IMG/VR virus record: IMGVR_UViG_3300047564_003078
Coordinates: 28,766 to 92,765 of that record
Source: a virus
Direction: 5' to 3' (one strand)
Length of the DNA: 64,000 bases
Below, in pieces: positions 6,982 to 39,066 of this stretch. The notes beneath the pieces are model-generated. The model was not told the origin of the DNA. It was given only the letters and a program-made list of their open reading frames with translations, and made no database searches. Position 1 is the first letter of the stretch, and every line of letters starts with the position of its first letter. The position numbers and the translations under genes are program-made.

Positions 6982-7740
6982 ATGAAAAAGTACGCATTTA
7001 TTACAAGCATGAATCAACGATACTATGATCACATAGGTAGATTCATGCTTGAAAGTTTTTTAAAATATGCACCAAAACATTTTGTTTTGCATCTATATGC
7101 CGAAAGTATTATTAGCAAATTACCCAAAGCACTTAATTTAGTAATCTATGATTGGAATAAAGTGTGCAAAGAAGACTGGGAAAAGTTTGCAGTTAAAACC
7201 GATGATAACAGTGCAAGAAAATTTGGCAAAAAAGGATGGGCAAGTATTCATGCTTGGGAAAACATAGATGCAGATTACCTTATTTGGTTAGATGCAGATT
7301 TATTATTTCACAATCCGTTCGACGAAGATGTTATAAAACTTACTATTAAAAAAAATATGTTAATTGGATTGTTTAATCACGCCTACATTGCTCATACAAA
7401 AAATGAAGTACCTATAGGATACAGTGCCGAAACAGGATACGTCATTATAAACAAACGTCATAAAGATTTTTTAAAATTTGTAAAAAAATATAGAGAAATA
7501 TATGAGTTACCTTTTAAGCCAACCGACATAGTTAAATGGTGGGACAATCAAATTTGTATGATGGTTGCTAATATGTTTATAGAAAACGTATTTGATTTAA
7601 GTATTATTAGAACAACTGATAAAACACAAACTCCATTAAATCATAGCGAATTAAGCAAATATTTTAGTCATCAAAAAGGTAAAAGTAAAAAACATATGAA
7701 TGCTACACAAATGCAATCACTAATTGGATTAAAAGAATGA
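6982..7740 (+). CDS. GT-A fold glycosyltransferase
   Basis: IWLDAD, ETGY and HQKG motifs. Confidence 0.65.
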   Translation: MKKYAFITSMNQRYYDHIGRFMLESFLKYAPKHFVLHLYAESIISKLPKALNLVIYDWNKVCKEDWEKFAVKTDDNSARKFGKKGWASIHAWENIDADYLIWLDADLLFHNPFDEDVIKLTIKKNMLIGLFNHAYIAHTKNEVPIGYSAETGYVIINKRHKDFLKFVKKYREIYELPFKPTDIVKWWDNQICMMVANMFIENVFDLSIIRTTDKTQTPLNHSELSKYFSHQKGKSKKHMNATQMQSLIGLKE

Positions 7741-18694: not shown

Positions 18695-20113
18695 ATGGCA
18701 ACAAGACAGAATACTGATTACGGATACGATATACAAAAACTATACTTAGAAATAATGCTCACAGATGCAGAAACATTTGTGCGTTGCCAAAGTGTGTTTG
18801 ATTCAACTACGTTTGATCGTAGACTGCAAGACACTGCTAAATTTATCAACGAGTATGTTATTGCACACAACATTGTGCCCACGTTTGATATGGTTAATGC
18901 TGCAACCAAATCAGATCTTAAGAATCCAGGAACACTTGAAGAAGCACACTATGATTGGCTACTACAAGAATTTGAAACATTCTCGAGACACAAAGCACTG
19001 GAAGCTGCTATTCTCAAAAGTGCAGACTTGCTGGAAAAGGGCGAGTATGGTCCTGTTGAAGAACTTGTAAAGCGGGCTGTACAAATTGGTTTGCAAAAAG
19101 ACTTGGGTACAGACTACTTTGCTGACCCGCGACGCAGACTAGAAGCAATCAAAAGCAACAACGGGCAAGTTAGCACAGGCTGGCCCACACTGGACAAGAA
19201 ACTGTTTGGCGGATTCAACAGAGGCGAACTCAATATCTTTGCAGGCGGTTCGGGCTCGGGCAAGAGTTTGTTCCTTGCTAACATGGGTGTAAATTGGGCA
19301 TTGGCTGGAATGAACGTGCTGTATCTCACTTTCGAACTTAGCGAAAACCTAGTCAGTATGCGTATTGACAGTATGGTTACAGACATTCCCAGCAGAGACA
19401 TCTTTAAGAGCATTGACGATGTTGAAATGAAAGTAAAGATGATTGGAAAGAAGTCGGGCAGTATACAAGTCAAGTACATGCCCACAGGCAAGAATGCCAA
19501 TGACTTGCGTAGCTATATCAAAGAATATGAAATCAAAACAAAGAAAAAACTTGATGTTGTATTGGTAGACTATCTAGATCTTATGCATCCAATCGGACAA
19601 AAGATTTCAGCAGAAAATCTATTCGTCAAAGACAAGTATGTCAGTGAAGAACTGCGTAACCTAGCAATGGAACTGAACACAGTGTTTGTTACAGCAAGTC
19701 AGTTGAACAGAGCCAGCGTTGAAGAAATTGAATTTGATCACAGTCATATTTCCGGTGGTATTTCAAAGATCAATACTGCGGATAACTTGATCGGTATCTT
19801 CACAAGTCGTGCAATGAGAGAACGTGGACGTTATCAAATTCAGCTGATGAAAACACGCTCAAGCTCAGGTGTTAACAGCAAGATTGATTTGGAGTTTGAT
19901 GTAGACAGTCTGCGTATTAGAGATCTTGGCGAGGAAGAAGAATTCAACGATTCTGACAAACGCAAGAGCACAGTGTTTGATCAACTCAAACGCAACAACA
20001 ACGCTCCTACTGCACCTGACAATCCCAGCGAAGGCGACACTGTTGGAAAAATACGTGCAACCACAGACAGCACTGCATTAAGAAACTTCTTAAACAAACT
20101 AGACGTTGAATGA
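18695..20113 (+). CDS. DnaB-like replicative helicase (gp41-like)
   Basis: GGSGSGKS, TFEL, VDYLD, TASQLNR and MKTR motifs. Confidence 0.9.
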   Translation: MATRQNTDYGYDIQKLYLEIMLTDAETFVRCQSVFDSTTFDRRLQDTAKFINEYVIAHNIVPTFDMVNAATKSDLKNPGTLEEAHYDWLLQEFETFSRHKALEAAILKSADLLEKGEYGPVEELVKRAVQIGLQKDLGTDYFADPRRRLEAIKSNNGQVSTGWPTLDKKLFGGFNRGELNIFAGGSGSGKSLFLANMGVNWALAGMNVLYLTFELSENLVSMRIDSMVTDIPSRDIFKSIDDVEMKVKMIGKKSGSIQVKYMPTGKNANDLRSYIKEYEIKTKKKLDVVLVDYLDLMHPIGQKISAENLFVKDKYVSEELRNLAMELNTVFVTASQLNRASVEEIEFDHSHISGGISKINTADNLIGIFTSRAMRERGRYQIQLMKTRSSSGVNSKIDLEFDVDSLRIRDLGEEEEFNDSDKRKSTVFDQLKRNNNAPTAPDNPSEGDTVGKIRATTDSTALRNFLNKLDVE

Positions 20114-20129
20114 GATATTATCTAGGAAG

Positions 20130-20891
20130 TCAGCCTACAAATAGACGCTGCCAAAAGGTCTGTGTTTGAACAGTACGCACCACGGGCAATCTACGCACAC
20201 CTAATGCTCGGCTAGGATCATAGAGATCAATTCTAACCGAGTTCTTTTGATTGCCGCCCAATATTTGCCAATACACCTTGCCATCTACAGTTACAGTGTC
20301 CACATAGAATCCTACATGACCTTGCCAGCTTTGTCTACCACGTGGAAACACCACTATGTCACCGGGCTGTGGATCCTCATGTTTATGATTCACAGGCTCG
20401 CCCCATTCTAAGAAACTTCTAGCCATCAACGGATATTCACTTACACTCTCTGATCCTGCATGATCGCCGCTGTGCAACACCGAGTTAACAAAAGCTGCAC
20501 ACCACTCCGTCTGTCTTGGATCCACACCCAAAAAGTCTCGCAGTTCTGATCTGTGCTGTTGTTCGTTCTTGTCCACCCACTCGTAGGCCACATCAAGATA
20601 AAAAGTTTCTCTTATCTTAGGTGCAAACAAAGCTTGAAACAAAGGATCGTTGCGTCGCGGCGGTTCGGGCTCAGGCGGCACCGACACATTTGATATCACA
20701 GCATCAGGTCTACTGCGTGGTCGTGGACTGGTTTCCACCACTGTGACCACGGGCACCGACTCCGGTGTTGCTGGTTCTGTAACAGCATATACCACACCGC
20801 TGGCACGTTCTTCTATGTCTTGTGAAACAACTTGCAATTGACTGCAAGCCCCTAATATGCTGACAGCAGCTACGATTGTTGGTATTCTCAT
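20130..20891 (-). CDS. lipoprotein with TIGR02594/NlpC-P60-like peptidase domain
   Basis: ILGAC lipobox, Pro-rich linker, WCAAFV, GHVGFY and LGGNQ motifs. Confidence 0.75.
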   Translation of the reverse strand: MRIPTIVAAVSILGACSQLQVVSQDIEERASGVVYAVTEPATPESVPVVTVVETSPRPRSRPDAVISNVSVPPEPEPPRRNDPLFQALFAPKIRETFYLDVAYEWVDKNEQQHRSELRDFLGVDPRQTEWCAAFVNSVLHSGDHAGSESVSEYPLMARSFLEWGEPVNHKHEDPQPGDIVVFPRGRQSWQGHVGFYVDTVTVDGKVYWQILGGNQKNSVRIDLYDPSRALGVRRLPVVRTVQTQTFWQRLFVG

Positions 20892-20960
20892 ACTTGGCCC
20901 TCCTAGTACTTATACACACCAACAGAGATACTGCGTGTGGTAAGCAGGATCTTGCTGACT

Positions 20961-21662
20961 CTACTGTAGAAAATGTTCTATGCTGTGGGCTAAACTGCTG
21001 AAGTTGGCTGCTAACCAAGCATGTCCTGCAGGTCCAGGATGAGCACCATCTCTGGCACCTCGGTCAAAGAACACACCGTTCAACCGTGGATCGTCTATGC
21101 TGATCATCTGAACCTCAAACCCGTAGCGTTGGCTGAGACCGTATAGTGCATAGCGTGTGGTACGTACCATAGCACTCAACACACCTGGATGCATGGCAGT
21201 GCGAGTCCAATAACGCCGTATCACCGAAGGATCCGTCAACGGAACATTGGGACGACTGTGAACACTGAATGTGTCCGCTCGTGCATCCTCATAATGACCC
21301 AAATAACGTCTGCCTGGTGTAGGCTCCAAATAGTACAGCACACTGATACGGTGGTTGCACTTTCGCAACAGCGTTTCCAAATAGTGTATGCAGGCTTCTT
21401 GTCCAGTACCACCTTCGCTGATGTTCATGGTTATGCCCATAACACTGCTCCAGGTTTGCTCCTCGCGAACTCCTACACCATAGGTACAACTGCAACCTAA
21501 ACTGGCAGTGGTTGGCTCCGACACTGGCCAATCCAGTCCTCTAAATCCATAACGATTGTGACGATATTCTATGTCCACACCACGCCAGGCAGGATTGCCA
21601 AATCCTCTATCTCCTGCACATAACGGACCTACTGTATAAGGCTTTACATGTGTTAATTGCAT
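20961..21662 (-). CDS. SGNH/GDSL hydrolase-like protein
   Basis: LGCSCTYG and DGAHPG; ATG 21662 follows a minus-strand TAAATA. Confidence 0.55.
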   Translation of the reverse strand: MQLTHVKPYTVGPLCAGDRGFGNPAWRGVDIEYRHNRYGFRGLDWPVSEPTTASLGCSCTYGVGVREEQTWSSVMGITMNISEGGTGQEACIHYLETLLRKCNHRISVLYYLEPTPGRRYLGHYEDARADTFSVHSRPNVPLTDPSVIRRYWTRTAMHPGVLSAMVRTTRYALYGLSQRYGFEVQMISIDDPRLNGVFFDRGARDGAHPGPAGHAWLAANFSSLAHSIEHFLQ

Positions 21663-21788
21663 ACAGATATTTACCAAGAGCCCTAAGCCGCTCGCGGAAA
21701 AGCCCCACGCTGCGAAGCAGCTCGCGGTAGCAAAAAATAACAATTCAGTACCAGCGTACTAGAACCGTATATAAAAACAATTCTACAT

Positions 21789-21840
21789 TGACCACGTCGC
21801 TAGCACCCTAACGACACGTCGATAACCGCCTAGCGACACG
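21789..21840 (-). repeat. left boundary array of 22-bp repeat (2 full + 1 partial unit)
   Basis: Minus strand reads CGTGTCGC / TAGGCGGTTATCGACGTGTCGT / TAGGGTGCTAGCGACGTGGTCA, an inverted copy of 31215-31266. Confidence 0.85.
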
Positions 21841-22395
21841 GTGTAGAAAAATACATCATTCTATTATGCGTACACCGTCTGTACTCAACAAAAACAGTGT
21901 CATATTTTTAGGACTGTGATGAGCTGCACACACTATTTCAAAATGTTCACTGGCTAACAGAGTAAACCCACGGTGAACCAATTCTACTCGTACCCATTGA
22001 ACTTTTCCAAACGGGTACAAAAACATGCTACGGCGGTCTAACTCAACATGCAGTCGCCAAGTGTACAACATAGAAATATTTACCGGAGCAACGCTCCAGT
22101 GCAGGCAGTTGATCACTGCCTTGCAGTTTCAGTTGAGAGGGGTATACTGCGTAAAAAAAATACTGCAAAAAAAATTTACACGGAGTACTTGAGCAAGGTG
22201 GGACCGAGATTTCATACACAGTGAGAAAAAACTTGTGCTGCGGTTTTTTATAAAGAAGTACTTATAGTTTCAGGGTGGTGATCGTGCAACCCCTGGTATT
22301 TAAAATCGCTACTACGCTGTGTAAGCTTTTGTAAATAAAGAATTATATGCGACCCCCCGAAGAGAAAAAATATTTTTCTTTGCCGACCTCAAGAG

Positions 22396-22424
22396 AAAAT
22401 CCGCAGGTTGTCAAACACTGCGGA
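22396..22424 (-). terminator. intrinsic terminator closing the minus-strand cassette array
   Basis: TCCGCAG..CTGCGGA stem followed by TTTT on the minus strand, just after ORF 22466. Confidence 0.6.
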
Positions 22425-22465
22425 AGTTCTGTATACATCAACGAAGGAGACAGCCGTTGTGATCG

Positions 22466-22840
22466 TTAGTCTGCTCTGCTGCCAGCGTAGGCAGTGTAAC
22501 CATACTTGGTGAGCACACGAGCAGCAGCACGAGCACCTGCTTCCTTAGCGTCCATGCTCTGCCCGGGCCACTGTGCAGGGTTCCACAGTTCGTAAGCCCG
22601 ACCAGTGTAGTCAGGACGCAGTCCAATCTCCTTAAGCGTTTGACGCTCCAGCTTACCCAGCTTAGTGTTGCCCTTGTGCTTGGGATATACAGTGACCCAA
22701 GCAAAGCCGCAGTACATGGGTTCGCCATAAGCATTGCCGCCAGTGCTGGCTTTCCACTCTGCGATGTAGTCGTGTGCAGCAGCAGCAGCCGCAGTCAAGG
22801 TCTCGTCACGTACTTGGATGGTGTCCATGGTAAAGGTCAT
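22466..22840 (-). CDS. early hypothetical protein
   Basis: Has its own promoter/leader repeat and RBS; CGFAWV motif. Confidence 0.7.
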   Translation of the reverse strand: MTFTMDTIQVRDETLTAAAAAAHDYIAEWKASTGGNAYGEPMYCGFAWVTVYPKHKGNTKLGKLERQTLKEIGLRPDYTGRAYELWNPAQWPGQSMDAKEAGARAAARVLTKYGYTAYAGSRAD

Positions 22841-22894
22841 CTTGTGTTCCTTTGTGTTGCCTACAGTGTTTATATAGTACGCTGCGGTGGAAGG

Positions 22895-23122
22895 TCAAGC
22901 CACTGTGGCGAAGTTTTCTTGCCGCAGAGGCAGATAGTTCTTTGCCACAGCATAGCGGATCAATTGACGATCCAGTTCAGTGAGTGTGGTCACACGGTTA
23001 GGAGTCTCCAGTTCAAATGCCAGTTGGCTTGCGGCATTGGCGATGCGATCGTTGAGATCACGTTCAGCAGTGCAGCGGAGACGATACATGATCTGTTGGA
23101 CTTGAGCGGCAGTGAGTTTCAT
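22895..23122 (-). CDS. early hypothetical protein
   Basis: 75 aa; ATGA-coupled with GAGG RBS. Confidence 0.6.
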   Translation of the reverse strand: MKLTAAQVQQIMYRLRCTAERDLNDRIANAASQLAFELETPNRVTTLTELDRQLIRYAVAKNYLPLRQENFATVA

Positions 23123-23250
23123 TTCTCTTCCTCATATACTAGGACAGGGTCGTGTGCATTGCGTGGTGCAGTGGTCATTGCGATAGCGTCTTCTAGACGT
23201 GTGACCACAGCTACGATTTCGCGGGTAAGATAGTCGCGGATGATATACAT
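23119..23250 (-). CDS. early hypothetical protein (43 aa)
   Basis: MYIIRDYLTRE...; tightly packed in operon. Confidence 0.5.
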   Translation of the reverse strand: MYIIRDYLTREIVAVVTRLEDAIAMTTAPRNAHDPVLVYEEEK

Positions 23251-23251
23251 G

Positions 23252-23443
23252 TTAGTCTCGCTTGATTCGAACAGTGCTCTTGCCAAAGAACGCAACCAGC
23301 ACAACCATTGCCAGCCAGTTCCAGAAGCTGTAGGCAATGCCCATAGCGAACAGAGTGTTCAGTGCCCAAATCGCAGCCAAGGGCCAAAGGAAGACCCAAA
23401 GGATGATGGTGAGCACAAGGGTAGTTCCAAACCAGGTCTTCAT
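23252..23443 (-). CDS. small membrane protein
   Basis: Two hydrophobic segments; AGGAG RBS. Confidence 0.6.
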   Translation of the reverse strand: MKTWFGTTLVLTIILWVFLWPLAAIWALNTLFAMGIAYSFWNWLAMVVLVAFFGKSTVRIKRD

Positions 23444-23456
23444 CTCAGTTCTCCTA

Positions 23457-23702
23457 TCAAAATTCGTCGATCAGTGCGAAGTCGTCATCGCCCTCGTAGT
23501 GGTCTTGGTAGTCATCTGCACTGTAGGTATAGATTGTGCTGTATTCGCCGTTGCTGAGGTGAACCGCAACATCAATGGTGTTGTATCCGCCAAAGCCGTC
23601 TTCAACATAATCATCTGCCCAACGCAGGGCTTCACTGCGAGTGTCAGCTTCATGCAGCAGGCATTCGGTGGTGTAGCCATAGTCGCCATAGATCTTGTAC
23701 AT
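23457..23702 (-). CDS. early acidic hypothetical protein
   Basis: Has its own promoter repeat; AGGAG RBS. Confidence 0.65.
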   Translation of the reverse strand: MYKIYGDYGYTTECLLHEADTRSEALRWADDYVEDGFGGYNTIDVAVHLSNGEYSTIYTYSADDYQDHYEGDDDFALIDEF

Positions 23703-23786
23703 CGTCGTCTCCTGTGTTGCCTACAGTCTACATATAGTGTTCTGGTTTCGGTTTGTCAACCTCTAACAGCGGGGTTCTGTGATTTT

Positions 23787-23957
23787 TTATTCCAGAGCCT
23801 CAGTGCAGTCGCAGTCCATCATATACTCGCTCATGATGCTGTCGTATGCAACATCACGCTTGGCCTGCCATTGTCCCACAGTCTCAGGACTGAACACGTA
23901 CACCAGCACGATGAGCCATGCAGTGGCGAAGAACAGGTTCGTTGGGTAGTTTTGCAT
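23787..23957 (-). CDS. small membrane-anchored protein (56 aa)
   Basis: MQNYPTNLFFATAWLIVLV...; GGAG RBS. Confidence 0.5.
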   Translation of the reverse strand: MQNYPTNLFFATAWLIVLVYVFSPETVGQWQAKRDVAYDSIMSEYMMDCDCTEALE

Positions 23958-23958
23958 C

Positions 23959-24234
23959 TTATTTCTCCTCTTTCACGCCCATTGCACGGGCAGCGGCTAC
24001 ACCTGCTTCAGTGAGGTACAGCACACGGTTACGGGTCTCAGTTTCGACAAACAGGCAACCAGCGTCATCTCCGCGTCCTTGGTTCCAGCTTTGGAGACGT
24101 GCATCTGGGTTCTTCAGCAGTGCGGTGAGTGCCATCTTGCGAGCACGGTCGCCTTCGTTGTACTTGCCATTGCAGCCGCACATGCAGCCAGGCTTGCCAG
24201 CGTATGAACGGACGGTGTGTTCCAGTGCGAGCAT
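23959..24234 (-). CDS. early Cys-motif protein (GCMCGCNGKY)
   Basis: Start ATG 24234 follows promoter repeat and GAGGG. Confidence 0.65.
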   Translation of the reverse strand: MLALEHTVRSYAGKPGCMCGCNGKYNEGDRARKMALTALLKNPDARLQSWNQGRGDDAGCLFVETETRNRVLYLTEAGVAAARAMGVKEEK

Positions 24235-24292
24235 CGTGTATCCCTCTTCGTTGCTGCCTACATGTTTAATATAGTAACCGTTCAACGGTTTG

Positions 24293-24691
24293 TCAAGAGC
24301 CTTCAGCCACTTTTTCTAGGTCTGCCAAAAGATTTTTCAGAGCCGCGATACGCTCTTGGCTAGGAAAGAAGCGGCCTGAATAGCTGTAGCCCTCCTTGAG
24401 TTCCTGCTCCATAGCACGAGCGATTCGCACCTGCTCCTTGCGACGAGTCTCGCTCTCTTGGATCATACGCAGTTTGGCAGCCTGCATCAAGCTAGGACCA
24501 TAATCGTCCTTGTAAGCATCTCCCGTCTTGGTGAAACGATACTCCCGGTCATCGCTTTGGACGAAGATGTGTCCGTGTCCGTTGACCTTGGTCACAGTGC
24601 CAAAGCGGCTCATCAAGATCGTGCCGTGGCGATGTTGACGAACAATACCAACCGTTTCACCAACCTCAGTAACGAACTCACCGTATGCCAT
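24293..24691 (-). CDS. early hypothetical protein (SH3/KOW-like N-terminus)
   Basis: Has its own promoter repeat; GAGGAG RBS. Confidence 0.65.
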   Translation of the reverse strand: MAYGEFVTEVGETVGIVRQHRHGTILMSRFGTVTKVNGHGHIFVQSDDREYRFTKTGDAYKDDYGPSLMQAAKLRMIQESETRRKEQVRIARAMEQELKEGYSYSGRFFPSQERIAALKNLLADLEKVAEGS

Positions 24692-24777
24692 CTGCTTGTG
24701 CTCCTCTAGCAGTGTTGCCCTACATGTTTAATATAGTCATGGTGACCGCAAAGGTCAACCTCGAACTCAATCTTTTT

Positions 24778-24969
24778 TTAGATTCCGTCGTAGTCGGGCA
24801 GTGCCTGCAGGCGGGGGATTTCCTTTTGGATGATCTCCAACTCCTGTGCTTCGGGCACAGGCGGCATGGAGTAGGCCATAGCCAACCAGCCAATGGTGTA
24901 TTCTGTGCCACACTTCTGACGCAGGAGTTTGACGAAGTCTTGCTTGACGTAGAACGGTTTGGTTTCCAT
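24778..24969 (-). CDS. early hypothetical protein
   Basis: Has its own promoter repeat; AAGGAG RBS. Confidence 0.65.
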   Translation of the reverse strand: METKPFYVKQDFVKLLRQKCGTEYTIGWLAMAYSMPPVPEAQELEIIQKEIPRLQALPDYDGI

Positions 24970-25046
24970 CTTGTGCTCCTTGCTGCCTACACGTTTAATA
25001 TAGTAGGTGCGACCCTGGTTGTCAAGAGCCGCACCAGAATTTTTTT

Positions 25047-25331
25047 TTACATGCTCCAGTAGGTTTCGCTAGCGGGCGAGCAAGCCAGTGGCGTGTTCAC
25101 GCTCTCCTCGTACTCAACACCGCTCATCAAATTGACTCGCTTCACAGTCCGCTCAATGTGACGGAAGTAGTATTCTTTCTCTGCGATGCCGTAGCAGTAG
25201 ATTGGATGATTAGGATCTGTTTGCAATTGACCTTTGCCCATACGAGTCAGTTGGGCCTGAGCAGCGGCGTGCGTCTTGTACTCCTTGCTGACGATGCGAG
25301 TGTCGTGCCGATCGTAAAGAAAGTATCCCAT
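25047..25331 (-). CDS. early hypothetical protein (CSPASETYWSM C-terminus)
   Basis: Has its own promoter repeat; GAGGG RBS. Confidence 0.65.
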   Translation of the reverse strand: MGYFLYDRHDTRIVSKEYKTHAAAQAQLTRMGKGQLQTDPNHPIYCYGIAEKEYYFRHIERTVKRVNLMSGVEYEESVNTPLACSPASETYWSM

Positions 25332-25399
25332 CTTCGTTCCCTCTTGTGTGTAGCCCTACTCAGCATATATAGCACGCCAAGTAGGGCTCGTCAACCGGT

Positions 25400-25588
25400 T
25401 TATGCTGAGAAATTGTGTTCTCTGAACAGAACGTCTAGCACACTGTCAATGGTCTCTCTGTCTGTTGCCAGCAGTTGATAACCGTGTGCGAGCAGTGCAG
25501 CCTTGATGCTCCAGATCTGTTCATAGCGGTCGGCGTCTCGGTTGAGGTTGTTGGCTACGAACTTTGCTACTTGTTGATGGAATGTCAT
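25400..25588 (-). CDS. early hypothetical protein
   Basis: Has its own promoter repeat; GAGGG RBS. Confidence 0.6.
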   Translation of the reverse strand: MTFHQQVAKFVANNLNRDADRYEQIWSIKAALLAHGYQLLATDRETIDSVLDVLFREHNFSA

Positions 25589-25663
25589 TGTGTGTTCCCT
25601 CTGTTGTGTTGCCCTACATGTTTAATATAGTAGGTGGCAGATGGGTTGTCAAGAGGTAAGATG

Positions 25664-25775
25664 AAAAAAATGCCCTAGCAGGATGAGGGCGGTCCTGCTA
25701 GGGCTATGGGGAGCAGAGCGTGAGGGCTACGCTGTTCCCCTTCAGACCAGGACGAGGGCACATCCCAGCCTAACC
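25664..25775 (-). ncRNA. candidate three-hairpin small RNA with GCCCUC in every loop; last hairpin is an intrinsic terminator
   Basis: Hairpins UAGGCUGGGAU[GUGCCCUC]GUCCUGGUCUG, AGCGU[AGCCCUC]ACGCU and GCCCUAGCAGGA[CCGCCCUCA]UCCUGCUAGGGC followed by AUUUUUUU. Confidence 0.55.
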
Positions 25776-25785
25776 GGATACGGAG

Positions 25786-26784
25786 TTACACTCGACGCAT
25801 CACGGTGTTCTCAGCAAAGACTTCCCAACGATCAGGAAAGCTCACTGCCAAGTCTGCCACCTTTAGTACAGTCCGAAGACTGAGTTCACGTAGGCGGTTC
25901 TTGTTAATATCCACGAACTCAATGATATCTTCTTTGACTTCGTCACCGAGGTTGTATGCATCCAACATGCCATCACGGATCACTTGACGGATACGCAGCA
26001 TCTTCTCACGCTCAGTGTCAATGGTCAGGTCCATGTAGTGGCAGCGGCTTTCCAGAGCTTCTAGGTGCTCACGCAGCTTGCCTTTGACCTTTCCAAACTT
26101 GAGGTTGGTGATAAAGATAGCACTTGCCTTGAAAGTGAAGCAATCTGGAATGCCTTCTTGCCGCAGCTTGTGGCTATCCGTGTTCCAGTGGATCTTGCGG
26201 TTCTTCTTTGAGTCCAGAGCTGCCTTAAGAATGTTCAGCGACAGTTCGTCCGAGAAGATGCTGTCACAGTCGTCGAACACGATCACATTGCCTTCGTCTG
26301 CCATCTTGTACAGTTTGGCATAGAGACCCAACGCACTCATGGCACCTTTGACCACTTCGTGTGTCTTGCGACCGCCCATGTCTTCCATCATCTTGTAACG
26401 ATCAAGGACTTCTTCTACACCGTGACTCTTGCCAACACCAGGAGGACCTGATACGATCATTGCTCGCACATCGCCCTTCTTCACAGCTTTGGTCATGTCG
26501 GTGAGCATATTGAAACGATCACGCAGTCTAGCGATGATGTCTTCGTCCGACTCCTCTTGACCCGCGGCGGTTATGGAGCCTTCAGTTTCAACAACCGAGT
26601 CTGCACCTGCTACCATCACCTTGATATTGCGGTCTGGAAACCCAGGGACAGCCGCACCATCAACTGTCACATAACCGCCGCGAACGCCAACCTTGTATCC
26701 TTCTGCAACAGGCAAGGTCATGCCTGCTACGCTAACCATCTTGCCACGCAGTTTGAATTCGCCGTCTTGGAATTTCATGTTCAT
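25786..26784 (-). CDS. AAA+/P-loop ATPase
   Basis: Walker A GPPGVGKS, Walker B IVFDDCD, sensor FITN, arginine finger LESR. Confidence 0.8.
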   Translation of the reverse strand: MNMKFQDGEFKLRGKMVSVAGMTLPVAEGYKVGVRGGYVTVDGAAVPGFPDRNIKVMVAGADSVVETEGSITAAGQEESDEDIIARLRDRFNMLTDMTKAVKKGDVRAMIVSGPPGVGKSHGVEEVLDRYKMMEDMGGRKTHEVVKGAMSALGLYAKLYKMADEGNVIVFDDCDSIFSDELSLNILKAALDSKKNRKIHWNTDSHKLRQEGIPDCFTFKASAIFITNLKFGKVKGKLREHLEALESRCHYMDLTIDTEREKMLRIRQVIRDGMLDAYNLGDEVKEDIIEFVDINKNRLRELSLRTVLKVADLAVSFPDRWEVFAENTVMRRV

Positions 26785-26840
26785 GTGTTTTGCCCTCGTT
26801 GTATCTGTTCAGTATACATGTTCTTGCAGTGTTGTCAACC

Positions 26841-27005
26841 TCAAAGACTGTTCATATATAGCAGCCAGCCTAGGAGACCAAACACCGCAAACAGCACCAC
26901 CGGACGTGTCATGATCTTGAAAATCAAACCAACCACACCCAAGATGATCAAGGCACTCAGTGCCAAGACCACTACAGAGAACGAATCCATCATCGCAGGA
27001 TCCAT
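26841..27005 (-). CDS. small membrane protein (54 aa, 2 TM)
   Basis: Coupled to the stop of 27005-27406; hydrophobic. Confidence 0.5.
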   Translation of the reverse strand: MDPAMMDSFSVVVLALSALIILGVVGLIFKIMTRPVVLFAVFGLLGWLLYMNSL

Positions 27006-27406
27006 CATACCATCGACTCCATCTCTGAGATCACAGTCTGGATCTGCTGATCAAATAGGCCTTTGTAGGGCAGTCCGAAGTGCCAAGCCACATAGTCCGA
27101 ACCATAAGCCAGGTCGTTCTCAGTGAATGCTTCAGCTTCGAGGATCCAACGGATGGCAGTCAGCTCGTCCTTAGCACCAATCAGCATGTAGCCTTGGACA
27201 CGCTGGTGGAACGCAATCTCTGCACGAGCATAGGCGTCCTTCTGCCGTGCTGTCTCAGTGGCCAGTTCCTCCAGCAGGTTGTCCCACATGGATTGACGAG
27301 TGTCGTCGCCGCACTGGCTCCACTCTTCCCAGAAGTACTCGGTCGGACGATAGCCGCGAGCGTCCTTGTGGAGGTCGGAAACGATCTGCTCATCGAAAGT
27401 ATACAT
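27005..27406 (-). CDS. early hypothetical protein (SDLHKDARGYRP motif)
   Basis: Has its own promoter repeat; GAGGG RBS. Confidence 0.7.
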   Translation of the reverse strand: MYTFDEQIVSDLHKDARGYRPTEYFWEEWSQCGDDTRQSMWDNLLEELATETARQKDAYARAEIAFHQRVQGYMLIGAKDELTAIRWILEAEAFTENDLAYGSDYVAWHFGLPYKGLFDQQIQTVISEMESMV

Positions 27407-27501
27407 CTTGTGTCCCTCAGTTCTGTTTGCCCTACACGTTTAATATAGTAGCCTCACAACCGTTTGTCAAGAGGTAGAAGAAGATTTTTTTAAACTTCTT
27501 T

Positions 27502-27578
<77 letters not shown>

Positions 27579-27591
27579 AGCAAAAGAAGTT

Positions 27592-27668
27592 TGGTAGGAC
27601 CTGCAGGACTCGAACCTGCAACCGACCCGTTATGAGCGGGGGGCTCTAACCAATTGAGCTAAGGTCCC
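27592..27668 (-). tRNA. tRNA-CAU, probably Ile2 (lysidine, reads AUA); Met not excluded
   Basis: Anticodon loop CTCATAA, GGGACCT acceptor stem, encoded CCA. Confidence 0.9.
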
Positions 27669-27674
27669 AAACTT

Positions 27675-27757
27675 TGGTACGGGCACCCGGACTCGAACCG
27701 GGATGCATTAAGCGAGAGATTTTAAGTCTCTTGTGGCTACCATTTCACCATGCCCGC
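27675..27757 (-). tRNA. tRNA-Leu(UAA)
   Basis: Anticodon loop CTTAAAA, extended variable arm, encoded CCA. Confidence 0.93.
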
Positions 27758-27767
27758 ATAGATTTAT

Positions 27768-27956
27768 TTATACTGGTACATTCTCGAACATATCGTTAAT
27801 TCGACATTGACGTTCCGTCTCTTCATCGATTTGACGAACTTCTGTTTCCAGCCGAACAATGTATTGATCCAGTGCTTGGCGAATCTTAGCTGTCGGAAGT
27901 TCGGCAATATCGCCTAGCTTGCTGATGACTGCGATCAGTGTCATGTAATCGTTCAT
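27768..27956 (-). CDS. early hypothetical protein (leads tRNA operon)
   Basis: Has its own promoter repeat; GAGGG RBS. Confidence 0.6.
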   Translation of the reverse strand: MNDYMTLIAVISKLGDIAELPTAKIRQALDQYIVRLETEVRQIDEETERQCRINDMFENVPV

Positions 27957-28185
27957 TGTGTCCCTCTTTGCTGTCTACATGTTTAATATAGTGGCCGTCT
28001 TCGGGTTTGTCAAGACCTAAAAAGTCTTTTTTTAGAATTTCCAGCTGCTCCAGTGCATCCGGATACCGCTCCAGCAGACTGTCCATCAGCAGGTCTCCAT
28101 CACATAGCCGTCCTCTTCTGCTTGCCGCAGCAGGTGTTCAATATAGTCCAGATAATCTTGGATAGTCAAGTCCATGTCGTTCTCC

Positions 28186-28470
28186 TTATGCCGGAATCTT
28201 TTTGATGTTGAGGTCTTGTGCTTCGTAGTCTGCATCGATAGTGCCGCTGACGAAGTAACGACGACGAGTGCCGTCGTGCTCAAAGCCCATCTCGTGAGTA
28301 TAGTTCTCCTTGGGCAGGTAAGCAAAGCCGCGATAGTTATCAGTCTCCATCAACACGGCTTCGATCACCGCAGCAACCGCCTCACGCTCTTCAGCGGTGG
28401 TGTGCTTGGCAGCAAGAAAGTTATTCGCAATCCGCAGTACCTTGCCAACTTCAATCGTCTTACGTGCCAT
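28186..28470 (-). CDS. early hypothetical protein (NYRGFAYL motif)
   Basis: Has its own promoter repeat; AGGAGG RBS. Confidence 0.7.
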   Translation of the reverse strand: MARKTIEVGKVLRIANNFLAAKHTTAEEREAVAAVIEAVLMETDNYRGFAYLPKENYTHEMGFEHDGTRRRYFVSGTIDADYEAQDLNIKKIPA

Positions 28471-28551
28471 CTGCGTGCCTCCTGGCGTTGCTGTCTACAG
28501 TTTACATATAGTGGCCGCAACCCGCTTTGTCAAGAGGGCTGCGACATTTTT

Positions 28552-28959
28552 TTATGCTTCTTCTGTTTCCAATGCACGAGCAAGGTCGTAGATGCCGTTG
28601 TAGGTGCTCACCTGCCAGCCAGCACCAGGAGTGAACAGGTAGTCATACTCCTGCCCGTTCTCAGCAACGAACTGACGCCAGTTGTGTGCAGTGCGAGCAT
28701 CAACATCACGCTCGCCACGATCGCGAGCATAGGAATTGGTTTCGCCCGCAGGAGCATTGTCAAAGTCGTGAGCAGTGCCAATCTCAGCACCAAGCGAACT
28801 GATATCGCCAAGACCGATCAACTCACGCACCTTAGCTTCGTCCGTATAGTTCTCAGCAAGGATTCGGCCGTTGTGGCTCAAGTAGCCGTCCCAGTGGCAG
28901 TAGATGCCCGTAACCGAACCGTCTTCATTCTGGATCCCAATAGTTGAACGAGTTCCCAT
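28552..28959 (-). CDS. early hypothetical protein (MGTRS..IYCHWDGY type)
   Basis: Has its own promoter repeat; GAGGAGG RBS. Confidence 0.75.
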   Translation of the reverse strand: MGTRSTIGIQNEDGSVTGIYCHWDGYLSHNGRILAENYTDEAKVRELIGLGDISSLGAEIGTAHDFDNAPAGETNSYARDRGERDVDARTAHNWRQFVAENGQEYDYLFTPGAGWQVSTYNGIYDLARALETEEA

Positions 28960-29032
28960 AGTAGCCTCCTCAGGCGTTGTGTTGCTGTCTACAGTTTACA
29001 TATAGTCACGGGCGACCCAAAGGTCAAGTGGT

Positions 29033-29398
29033 TCAGGCAAATTCTTTTGCACCTGTGATCACATAATCCTGCCGCCAGCTGCCGATGCGGATATCCGTGT
29101 AGTGGCTGCGGTGGAAGTAGTCCGTCATTGAGTCGTCGTGGTTGAAGTAGTCCGGGCCCTTCATAGCAGCCAGCAACTCAGTGAGGAAGCGACGAGCGAC
29201 ACCAGTGTAATGCTCGTGGATCCAATACTCGTTGACATCAATGTTGGTGCCGCCAAAGTCAATGGGTCCGCTCTTGATCTTCACAACCAGAGTGCTGTGA
29301 TGACCAACGCTGATGGTGCCCTTCATCTTGTACTTGGCGAGCACGGCACGGATCCCCGGTGCCAGCTTGGACTTGTCTTCCTGCGAAACATATGCCAT
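29033..29398 (-). CDS. early hypothetical protein (DDSMTDYF motif, LPD29-like)
   Basis: Has its own promoter repeat; AGGAG RBS. Confidence 0.7.
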   Translation of the reverse strand: MAYVSQEDKSKLAPGIRAVLAKYKMKGTISVGHHSTLVVKIKSGPIDFGGTNIDVNEYWIHEHYTGVARRFLTELLAAMKGPDYFNHDDSMTDYFHRSHYTDIRIGSWRQDYVITGAKEFA

Positions 29399-29477
29399 GT
29401 CGTGTGCTCCTGTGTTGCCTACATGTTTAATATAGTTGCCCCACCTGGTGTTGTCAAGAGGGGCAACGACATTTTTT

Positions 29478-29657
29478 TTATTCTAGCACGGTGCTCCAAG
29501 GTTGAGCGTTCTGCCACTCTTCGTAGTTCAGCAGGTGCAGCAGAGTGAGGTGTGTGCCAGCAGTGATGGTCTTACCACTGTCACGATGACGAGCACGCCA
29601 GTTGTTCGAACGATAGATGTTCCAGCCACGCTCTGCGAGTTCTTGCGAGTTCAGCAT
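29478..29657 (-). CDS. small hypothetical protein (59 aa)
   Basis: GAGGGC RBS; MLNSQELAERGW...; not in ORF track. Confidence 0.5.
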   Translation of the reverse strand: MLNSQELAERGWNIYRSNNWRARHRDSGKTITAGTHLTLLHLLNYEEWQNAQPWSTVLE

Positions 29658-29669
29658 TGCCCTGCCCTC

Positions 29670-29741
29670 TTAGGCGAAAGTGATGAAGTGGTGTGCAGCG
29701 ACAGCAATCATGATCGCGGAAAGCAGGATCGGAAGTTTCAT
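29670..29741 (-). CDS. 23-aa hydrophobic peptide
   Basis: First ORF after promoter copy 29757; GAGG RBS; MKLPILLSAIMIAVAAHHFITFA. Confidence 0.45.
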   Translation of the reverse strand: MKLPILLSAIMIAVAAHHFITFA

Positions 29742-29805
29742 CGTGTGCCTCTTTGTGTTGCCTACAGTTACTATATAGTCACCGTTGAACCGTTTGTCAA
29801 GTGGC

Positions 29806-30087
29806 TCAAGCAAATTCTTTTACTGGCTTGAGCAAGCTTGCATGAACCTTCCACGTGGTGTAGGCATTGTCCTGCTTGACTTGGATGGTCTTGATGTTGA
29901 CTTTGGTCACAGTGCCCAGCACCTGCATACCACGAGCGGCAAACGATACACGGTCGCCAACAGCGAAACTCACAGCACTCTGACGAGCAAGGTAGGTGCG
30001 GCGGTCTTTGATTGCACGAACCACAGCGTTCAGTTCGTCGTTGTCCATCTTGTGGATTGCAGTGATGGCGGTTGCAAAGTTGTTCAT
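29806..30087 (-). CDS. early SH3/KOW-like protein
   Basis: FAVGDRVSF..GTVTKVN..W motif; ATG 30087 follows promoter repeat. Confidence 0.65.
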   Translation of the reverse strand: MNNFATAITAIHKMDNDELNAVVRAIKDRRTYLARQSAVSFAVGDRVSFAARGMQVLGTVTKVNIKTIQVKQDNAYTTWKVHASLLKPVKEFA

Positions 30088-30160
30088 CTTGTGGTCCTCT
30101 TTGTTGCCTACAGTGTTTATATAGTCACCAGTCAATGTAAGATCAAGTGGTGCAGGAAAA

Positions 30161-30532
30161 TTATTTTACATGAACCGAGCAGCTCTCTGTTGCGGGTTTG
30201 TACACCACAGCATCTGCCGACACGCCTGCCGCAGCCAGAGCAGCCAGGAAGTCCGCACGACGACGAGCACGATTCAGCACCACTCGGTTGAACTTGACTT
30301 CTGTGTGAGCCTCGCGACGAGCAGTGCGACCCCGTGCTGTCTCGTATATAGCAGCCCAACCTGCGAAGTATTCACGCATGATGCTCTTCACTGTTTCTAC
30401 TCGCAGTTGATGGGCAGTGCTGTCAAACAGGTTGCGGTTGGCAAGATACGCTGCCTCTGCACGAGCATTGATGTCTTCTACTGCGAACCATGCGGGCTGA
30501 CGAGTGTTTGATTCAGTGTCCTTGATCAGCAT
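30161..30532 (-). CDS. early hypothetical protein (first gene of array)
   Basis: Has its own promoter repeat; AAGGAG RBS. Confidence 0.65.
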   Translation of the reverse strand: MLIKDTESNTRQPAWFAVEDINARAEAAYLANRNLFDSTAHQLRVETVKSIMREYFAGWAAIYETARGRTARREAHTEVKFNRVVLNRARRRADFLAALAAAGVSADAVVYKPATESCSVHVK

Positions 30533-30646
30533 GTCTGTGCTCCTTGCTGCCTACAGTTACTATATAGTCACCCCTCCTACAGTTCGCAAGAGGCAGCACG
30601 AAAAAAAATTTCCGAAAAAAAAGTGAAAAAATCTTCCTCCAGCCTC

Positions 30647-30690
30647 TTGTAAAGCTCGCAAGCCGCACTATATTAAGTAGTGAGGCCAGC
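30647..30690 (+). promoter_or_regulatory. divergent promoter of the same class, pointing into non-coding DNA
   Basis: TTGTAA-16-TATATT-AAGTAGTGAGGCCAGC; shares A-tracts 30601-30631 with the leftward promoter. Confidence 0.5.
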
Positions 30691-30747
30691 AAAGCACCGC
30701 GGACACGGAGCGAGTAGGGGACGCGAGGGTCGCCGAACCCTGAACCT

Positions 30748-30890
30748 ATGGTTTAATGATTAAACCATTCTCTCCCCGCGAGATAGTTTAACGTTAAACC
30801 TTCTCCTCCGATTGGTTTAACACTAAACCATTCACCTCGATTCGGTTTAACTCTAAACCATTGCCTCAAACCAGTTTAACATTAAACCAT
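30748..30890. repeat. five palindromes (G)GTTTA-N4/5-TAAACC at ~30-bp period
   Basis: GTTTA starts at 30751, 30786, 30815, 30845 and 30874. Confidence 0.85.
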
Positions 30891-30978
30891 CTGCTTCCCG
30901 CCACCAAGATGCACCTTCTTGCCACCACCACCGCCCCACCACCACAGACAGTTCAACCAACCGCTGAACTTGACCAGC

Positions 30979-31130
30979 TAACCCATCGATCACGGATAGT
31001 GTAATGAAATCAATCACTTATACCACCTATTAGAACCACCACATAACCCATTGATCTTACACTAGTAAAAAGATCCAACAAAGTCAATAGGTTACACTGC
31101 ATAGTAGAACCACAGTGTAACCCATTGAAA
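30979..31130. promoter_or_regulatory. five IHF-like sites in alternating orientation
   Basis: AATCAATCACTTA at 31008 is an exact WATCAANNNNTTR match; near matches at 30979, 31044, 31082 and 31118. Confidence 0.5.
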
Positions 31131-38653: not shown

Positions 38654-39066
38654 CGTAGCCACGCAACTCGCTTGCCTGCGTCAACTCTACGACGATATTC
38701 TTCTTCACTGCTGGGATATCTCCATGCCCAAACAGCAACCAGTATCATGAATGCACCTGTCCACAGTGCAGCAAGATCGTTGCCAGTTGCTAACCATGTG
38801 ATCAACACAGTGGATAGCATTGTGACCAACATTAGATATTTCAGTCGTTGTGGAAATATACGCTTTTCTTGCCAACCTGTTAAGAAAGGACCAAATCTTG
38901 GATGATTGTACAACCAATTGTGCATACGATCACTGCTTCTAGCAAAACAATATGCTGCTATCACAGTAGGAGTACTCCACGGAATACCCGGAACTACAAC
39001 GCCTATAAATGCTACGCCTATAGACAGTATACCAGTGGCAAACCACAGTGCTTTACTTAATTTCAT
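38650..39066 (-). CDS. ybaN: YbaN (DUF454) inner-membrane protein
   Basis: G.IGVVVPG.P..P....[17 protein letters not shown]. Confidence 0.85.

Follow-up and report, generated by a model that had tools for sequence, protein, structure and literature searches.

Hairpin loops behind an NrdC.10-like ATPase gene of freshwater phages complement a private ribosome-binding word of the early genes

The 122 nt behind an AAA+ ATPase gene of an uncultured freshwater phage were found to fold, as RNA, into three consecutive hairpins that carry the hexamer GCCCUC in or at their loops. This hexamer is the complement of GAGGGC, a word, here called the tag, that lies in the ribosome-binding sites (RBSs) of the early gene block of the same phage and of its relatives. 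In a sister clade both words are different, and they are again exactly complementary to each other at the homologous place. Judged from these sequence comparisons, it is very probable that tag and loops form base pairs and thereby control the synthesis of early proteins, and the role that we consider probable on balance is that the loops pair with the RBSs of the early class and occlude them, which would give feedback or a timed shut-off of early genes.

Genome setting of the array

The DNA analysed is a stretch of 64,000 nt (the window) from a 92.8-kb IMG/VR virus record of freshwater origin that is 26% complete according to CheckV. Because records of relatives reach 256-275 kb at 72-77% completeness, the source is taken to be a giant phage, and it was placed among the T4-related phages on account of its core genes, which include NrdA/B, a DnaB-like helicase and RnlA, and of the ATPase, which is a homologue of T4 NrdC.10 and PA5oct gp126. 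Phages of this kind are widespread in freshwater metagenomes. The segment from 20 to 31 kb of the window (20000-31000) is an island of 50% GC in a genome of 40% GC; every gene in it is on the minus strand, and it contains about ten near-consensus sigma-70 promoters (TTGACA-17-TATATT). Three tRNA genes (27505-27757) are also located inside the island.

The ATPase gene (25786-26784, minus strand) encodes a protein of 332 aa with weak Pfam matches to AAA/AAA_16 and a match to phrog_1250 (6e-79), and its tblastn matches are annotated nrdC.10; a sequence search of the PDB gave no match for it. The ATPase cassette is preceded by a sigma-70-like promoter with the structure TTGACA-16-TATACT (26811-26838, minus strand), found by consensus scan. 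The hairpin array, which forms the 3' UTR of the ATPase, extends over 122 nt from the ATPase stop codon to the end of a U-tract (25664-25785, minus strand), and directly after it stands the sigma-70-like promoter of the next cassette, TTGACA-17-TATATT (25624-25652, minus strand). A promoter with at least 10 of 12 consensus positions follows the array in 24 of 27 relatives in the same type of scan.

Fold of the array

The minus strand of 25664-25785 folds with a minimum free energy (MFE) of -57.4 kcal/mol vs a mean of -39.8 kcal/mol for shuffled sequences (z = -4.99), and none of 200 shuffles folded as well. The three copies of GCCCTC on this strand are at 25754-25759, 25722-25727 and 25685-25690. 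Hairpin 1 (25742-25773, minus strand) has a 13-bp stem and the loop UGCCCU (25755-25760), its closing pair being formed by the last C of the GCCCUC motif. In the MFE structure of hairpin 2 (25708-25740, minus strand) a 3-bp helix hides the motif's 'GC', and an alternative inner helix, GCGU/ACGC, exposes the loop AGCCCUC. The MFE fold thus pairs part of the motif in both hairpins 1 and 2, and this counts against a simple story of loop pairing. Hairpin 3 (25664-25704, minus strand) has a 12-bp stem (25672-25704) and the loop CCGCCCUCA, and is followed by an A and seven U residues (25664-25670); it is the only one with the form of an intrinsic terminator, as hairpins 1 and 2 have no U-tract. The array is therefore situated behind the stop codon of its parental mRNA and reaches to the intrinsic terminator, on the same strand, which is the arrangement of an sRNA derived from a 3' UTR.

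An earlier reading of the window, made from the sequence only, had described three consecutive minus-strand hairpins with GCCCUC in every loop and a U-tract behind the last, and this observation was confirmed. The same reading had called the stems unrelated; this holds within the window and does not hold across relatives, where the inner stems form recurrent types.

Over the whole window GCCCTC is not enriched (14 copies seen, 12.3 expected), and three copies within 75 nt of one strand of a 40% GC genome are unusual in themselves; chance was ruled out as their origin because the motif is conserved in relatives. No Rfam family reached its threshold in the window. Two sub-threshold candidates were rejected, namely NsiR1 (RF02399), which scored 25.9 bits vs a threshold of 39 on the strength of the terminator stem and U-tail with the loop region unaligned, and a structure-generic match to mir-92 that appeared in a permissive Rfam search.

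Hairpin 2 forms part of a 15-nt block, GCCCUCACGCUCUGC (25713-25727), that is conserved in about 20 relatives, and alignment A1 of the window with these relatives displays sequence conservation well past what the stem needs. The 3' flank, ACGCUCUGC, could serve a separate purpose, for example as a processing site or a second seed.

Conservation of loops and stems in relatives

IMG/VR contains more than 585 relatives of the ATPase. Forty-five loci encoding such relatives were retrieved, and the 27 non-redundant ones were used for counts. Every relative with 66-93% ATPase identity carries from two to five copies of GCCCTC directly after the stop codon, with a spacing of about 35-45 nt. Within the first 250 nt behind the ATPase stop the 27 loci contain 87 sense copies vs 28 in the other 159 kb, a density of 12.9 vs 0.18 per kb (about 70-fold), and the copies in this zone are all on the sense strand. 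Across five whole records of 98-275 kb, sites with two copies are essentially confined to the ATPase locus, and the true arrays recovered by a 15-mer search of IMG/VR all follow the ATPase. Of the 118 matches of that search, 98 were discarded as single chance matches, and ten apparent arrays without the ATPase proved to be chance matches in unrelated sequence, mostly with one copy in view. A second two-copy site at 173.6 kb of genome G001 was likewise rejected as an array: no stable fold is present there, and one of the two GCCCTC corresponds on the opposite strand to a GAGGGC that immediately precedes an ATG and is apparently an RBS.

The motif is embedded in stems more often than its composition would give. 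An uninterrupted flanking stem of at least 4 bp was found for 77% of 93 motif instances vs 32% with shuffled flanks, and one of at least 7 bp for 25% vs 2.4%. In the UGCCCU class (24 distinct instances) 98% of the cells are paired, four of five pairs have changes on both sides, and the covariation score computed on motif-anchored alignments is 0.64 vs 0.22 for shuffled data (0/500), the unbiased figure remaining the 77% vs 32% above, as the classes were assigned by a stem-finding step. The covariation signal collapses when the partners are slid. The CCGCCCUCA class has 12 distinct stems among its 13 instances, and the inner-stem types that recur across relatives are GGA-CCGCCCUCA-UCC, GGAUG-UGCCCU-CGUCC and GCGU-AGCCCUC-ACGC. 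An alignment of the distal two-hairpin unit with MAFFT gave no predicted pairs in RNAalifold, because sequence alignment sets the variable stems out of register, and it was replaced by the motif-anchored alignments. The last hairpin of the relatives examined has the motif in its loop, usually with a T-run next to it, and the ATPase stop codon is located in the loop of a first hairpin (UAAUGCCCUC) in many relatives, with compensatory changes in the stem though one arm is coding (GCGTT/GACGC, TCGCT/AGCGA, ATTCTT/AAGAAT). Hence the conserved structured RNA that the sequence-only reading had placed in the ATPase 3' UTR is supported by the fold of 25664-25785 and by the 27 relatives, and both of the features by which it was to be recognised, an invariant loop motif at homologous loci and compensated stems, were found.

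Two relatives have an unusual layout. In one (L004:2192-2843) a 651-bp insertion, by comparison with locus L003, sits exactly between the ATPase stop and the array, which is intact downstream of it. In the other (L051:1470-1560, equivalent to G004:C1:5200-5290) a second two-loop GCCCUC element directly adjoins a tRNA gene at its 3' end and lies 2.7 kb upstream of the ATPase array, with GAG-CCGCCCUCA-CUC and AGCGU-AUGCCCUC-ACGCU inside a longer stem; the window has no element of this kind behind its tRNA genes.

The surroundings of hairpin 3, with the promoter at 25624-25652, have the layout of the promoter-early stem-loops (PeSLs), in which a stem-loop terminator, a sigma-70 early promoter, a Shine-Dalgarno (SD) sequence and a start codon are arranged around small early genes (PMC2839356; PMC4122927), and the array shares with them a location in a plastic region of a T4-related phage. 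However, PeSLs exist in many copies, are defined by conservation of promoter and stem and have been proposed as recombination sites, whereas the array has a single copy of several hairpins and is defined by its loops; the PeSL papers describe no complementarity of loop to SD (PMC4122927). A role that is not specific to RNA, be it as a stack of terminators, as a PeSL-like recombination module or as a target of a DNA-binding protein in the form of double-stranded DNA sites or cruciforms, would suit hairpin 3, which is a genuine terminator form before the next promoter as in the PeSL architecture (PMC4122927). For the array as a whole it is very improbable, since the U-tract is on the last hairpin only, the strand bias is strict (sense GCCCUC in the array, sense GAGGGC at the RBSs), the loops stay constant on stems that co-vary, and the GCCCUC array occupies one locus per genome.

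The GAGGGC tag of early genes

The loops complement the consensus RBS, AGAGGGCAA, of the whole GC-richer, sigma-70-driven early block. The sequence-only reading, in which the loops face the RBSs of early genes, was correct in this, and too narrow in taking a subset of these genes as the target. The RBS consensus of 305 ORFs is AAAGAGGGCAA, and 44-46% of them have GAGGG or AGGGC at positions -18 to -4, which is far commoner than AGGAG. Sense GAGGGC occurs 146 times in the clade loci, and in 131 cases (90%) it precedes the ATG of an ORF by 3-10 nt. The last base of the tag is strongly C (146 GAGGGC vs 20 GAGGGA, 27 GAGGGT and 12 GAGGGG), and the base after it is A in 73% and U in 23%, which is mirrored by the base before the loop GCCCUC, U in 57% and A in 29%. 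Of GAGGGC(A), the universal 16S tail CCUCC can pair with GAGG only, and therefore the conserved GC(A) needs another reader; an RNA that reads the tag through its loops would explain why an SD extension unable to pair with 16S rRNA is so strictly conserved.

The tag is restricted to the early block: the RBS-placed GAGGGC of this genome (26792, 29664 and 20897) and the GAGGGA variants are all within 20-31 kb of the window, and in a 275-kb relative 16 of the 25 RBS-placed GAGGGC fall in a single 10-kb bin that also holds the array, the rise in GC and six promoters. The tag of the ATPase itself (26792-26797, minus strand) is contained in ACGAGGGCA at 26791-26799, 7 nt before the ATG, and forms with hairpin 1 the best predicted duplex (-17.6 kcal/mol); the complementarity of UGCCCUCGU in hairpin 1 to this site, noticed in the first reading, was verified. 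A GAGGGA tag was read from the sequence at the RBS of the next ORF, 25400-25588 (25596-25601, minus strand), and motif scans located GAGGGC at the RBS of ORF 29478-29657 (29664-29669, minus strand), which had already been recognised as such for the ORF starting at 29657, and, within GGAGGGC, at that of ORF 20130-20891 (20897-20902, minus strand). Predicted duplexes between loops and leaders have a median of -11.2 kcal/mol at ORF starts of the island vs -6.4 kcal/mol elsewhere, a gap inflated by the GC content of the island. A scan of the genome for 8-mer complements returned mostly noise and was set aside.

The RBS of the ATPase drifts in some loci (AAGGGC, AGGGGC, CAGGGC) and the loops there remain GCCCUC, so that there is no one-to-one compensation between the loops and this RBS alone. 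This bears on the view that the array acts in cis only, pairing with the RBS of its own message as autoregulation or in a closed loop, or protecting the 3' end, with the other early matches being a by-product of shared cassette leaders. The constant association of the array with the ATPase gene, the ATPase RBS as the partner of the strongest predicted duplex in this genome and the overlap of the first hairpin with the stop codon in many relatives are all in line with such a role. It is nevertheless unlikely in our estimation, because the ATPase RBS varies and the loops do not, the array was kept despite the 651-bp insertion that separates it from the gene in one relative, a tRNA gene of another relative is followed by a second copy with two loops, and two to five redundant loops exceed the needs of one RBS.

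Tag and loop words in different clades

A profile search yielded 80 further loci, with ATPase identities of 51-69%. Those of a large sister clade have a different private RBS, AGGAGCGAA, with 146 of 157 GGAGCGA being RBS-placed vs none of the 58 GAGGGC of that clade. At the same place as the array these loci present the loops AUUCGCUCC, the exact complement of the tag AGGAGCGAA, in hairpins whose loops read (C)GAUUCGCUCC(CGG); the hairpins are directly behind the ATPase in 13 loci, with two copies each, and about 800 nt further on in about 20 loci, with one copy. When 114 non-redundant loci were sorted by tag, GCCCUC arrays were present in 29 of the 31 GAGGGC-tag loci and a UCGCUCC array in none of these, the 40 GGAGCGA-tag loci had UCGCUCC hairpins and in no case a GCCCUC array, and 38 of the 43 loci with other, AAGGA-type tags had no hairpins, a comparison that represents two or three evolutionary events only.

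Both word pairs were recovered at the ATPase 3' end by an unbiased scan for RBS-enriched 6-mers with a clustered complement on the sense strand. The scan gave a few other clusters elsewhere in the loci, and the four that were inspected are coding sequence; clusters of GCTCCT in clade 2 were discarded as Ala-Pro coding repeats. A generic census of hairpin-loop k-mers in the outgroup loci (L033-L042) disclosed no alternative loop word.

Two exact complementary word pairs at a homologous site would be very hard to explain except by RNA-RNA pairing. If the loops were instead read by a phage or host protein, possibly the ATPase, the array would be a sponge or an assembly site; identical loops repeated on variable stems are typical of protein-titrating RNAs, and among the CcsR RNAs of Alphaproteobacteria there is a precedent for a tie between RNA and upstream gene product, the protein CcaF1 binding the CcsR RNAs that derive from the 3' UTR of its own message (PMC8034643). 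Such a reader leaves unexplained why the loop is the exact complement of the RBS in two clades with different words, and no RNA-binding domain was detected in the genes neighbouring the array, so that we judge it improbable and retain pairing of the loops with early RBSs.

Presence in RNA libraries

Short contigs of one freshwater metatranscriptome library cover the hairpins (25679-25763, without mismatch) and parts of the ATPase gene, and other lake-water libraries contain parts from relatives. These contigs indicate presence in RNA libraries only, gaps in their cover and their depth not being interpretable, and they are taken as a weak hint of expression because RNA ends are not visible in contigs and DNA may have been carried over into the library. 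In the freshwater RNA library X1 one contig passes straight from 25738 to 25781 and leaves out the 42 nt of hairpin 1, and a co-occurring strain therefore seems to lack this hairpin or to have replaced it, which fits a modular gain and loss of hairpins.

No conserved promoter of its own was found for the array by consensus scan of the last 200 nt of the coding sequence in 27 loci, where four weak matches (9 of 12) occurred. A trans-acting species would therefore need processing from the longer message.

Proposed role and known systems

According to the proposed mechanism, the 122 nt behind the ATPase would be transcribed as its 3' UTR, the three hairpins of which would present GCCCUC to its Watson-Crick complement GAGGGC(A), the putative extended, non-canonical SD tag of the early block including the ATPase. 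The UTR, or a stable fragment of it, would then pair loop to RBS through 6-9 GC-rich base pairs, each RNA offering several redundant sites. Pairing would occlude the ribosome-binding sites of the whole early class, most simply by blocking 30S binding, and the synthesis of early proteins would thereby come under feedback or undergo a timed shut-off, in an RNA-only analogue of the action of RegB at GGAG sites in T4. As the ATPase message is itself tagged, the circuit would include self-feedback, and the structured 3' end, which is expected to outlast the messages, may accumulate as a timer. Pairing in vivo, action in trans, processing and a repressive sign are inferred. The stoichiometry of three loops per RNA against about 15-25 strongly transcribed early messages is uncertain.

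The chances seem evenly balanced for a wider proposal, in which clade-specific SD extensions (GAGGGCAA in one clade, GGAGCGAA in another) would mark early genes as a private and evolvable translational 'address code', the multi-loop RNA from the message of the NrdC.10-like ATPase would switch the whole early class, and tag and anti-tag would co-evolve as an RNA-only temporal switch. Early-gene shut-off in large phages is known to proceed via proteins, such as RegB, RegA, anti-sigma factors and ADP-ribosylation. If true, a whole gene class would be addressed by an RNA through a private ribosome-site word, which would make the RNA a new kind of developmental switch in phages, and a rare case in which an sRNA and its regulon are both readable from sequence, with the two clades as natural 'compensatory mutants'. 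The orthogonal pairs of tag and anti-tag may also be of use in synthetic translational control.

The array appears to belong to a known kind, that of multi-hairpin anti-SD sRNAs, with the phage setting and the private, co-evolving tag as its new traits. A literature search found no paper that describes GCCCUC hairpins or a GAGGGC tag in phages. The nearest architecture is that of the cuckoo/CcsR RNAs of Alphaproteobacteria (RSs0680, SmelA075/A099, alpha-r14), which have from two to four adjacent hairpins with a shared loop motif (PMC4615179; PMC8034643) and arise by processing of the upstream gene's 3' UTR (PMC4615179, PMC8034643). Both have adjacent hairpins (two to five in the phages) with variable stems and one C-rich, anti-SD-like loop word, both are co-transcribed with a protein gene upstream, lie in its 3' UTR and end in a terminator, and in both hairpins come and go as modules. 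They differ in the loop word, which is GCCCUC here (UUCGCUCC in the sister clade) and not CCUCCUCCC; in the setting, a phage and not a cellular genome; in the upstream gene, which encodes an AAA+ ATPase and not a DUF1127 (ccaF) protein; and in the target, here an RBS extension that is private to a clade and changes together with the loops. The sequence-only reading had drawn this parallel as one of architecture with a different motif, and in this it was borne out; the array loops UGCCCU(C), AGCCCUC and CCGCCCUCA lack the cuckoo motif CCUCCUCCC, and the array is not a member of that family.

In Listeria, LhrC blocks an SD by means of three redundant CU-rich sites, the terminator loop among them (PMC4132741), and the UCCC-motif hairpins of the Rsa RNAs and RNAIII of Staphylococcus similarly offer redundant C/U-rich loops that pair with the SD of a target and block its translation (PMC4132741; PMC2790875). 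These are stand-alone Firmicutes genes that pair with ordinary AG-rich SDs and have no sequence relation to the array, whereas the partner proposed here, an extended SD of an unusual type, is limited to a single temporal class of phage genes. A functional parallel in T4 is offered by RegB and RegA, where a shared extended SD word lets the phage inactivate early messages as a class and the message of the regulator is tagged as well (PMC3014915); RegB differs in being a protein endonuclease that acts with S1 at GG*AGRAYARAA, the reader proposed here being an RNA.

The RegB precedent also admits the opposite sign, in which the loops would stabilise or activate early messages, either by shielding the tagged RBSs from a RegB-like nuclease or a host defence, or by opening an inhibitory leader structure. 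Complementarity and co-variation fit this equally well, and recognition of the extended SD GG*AGRAYARAA on early messages by T4 RegB (PMC3014915) indicates that extended early tags can be nuclease addresses. A covered SD, on the other hand, normally blocks 30S binding, as with LhrC (PMC4132741), and activation is held to be a rather unlikely outcome compared with the repression proposed above. A search for the RegB family gave no match in four records of 26-77% completeness, and the control genomes gave none either.

Other features of the loci

For the cultured relative PA5oct, a Pseudomonas phage (L055, 246116-246734), a 'putative lncRNA' based on RNA-seq is annotated about 2 kb upstream of gp126, and there is no GCCCUC array behind this ATPase homologue.

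The word CGCUCC, the core of the anti-tag of the sister clade, is present in the array zone of 11 of the 27 clade-1 loci (1.5 per kb vs 0.09 per kb elsewhere), and GGAGCG is not used as RBS in clade 1. It is often found as GCCCUCACGCUCCGC right at the stop codon, in the first 15 nt (L001, L002, L010, L013, L032 and others), its counterpart in the window being CUCCGUAUCC at 25776-25785. This word may be what is left of a hairpin present in a common ancestor.

Many genes located outside the GC-rich island have TAAATA(Y) followed by 4-6 nt directly before the start codon, for instance ctaaatatctgt before ATG and ttaaatattca before GTG. Such starts are at 6982, 33081, 33983, 47081 and 47835 on the plus strand and at 39053 and 21856 on the minus strand. 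The element resembles the T4 late promoter box TATAAATA, and at so short a distance from the start codon the messages would be nearly leaderless.
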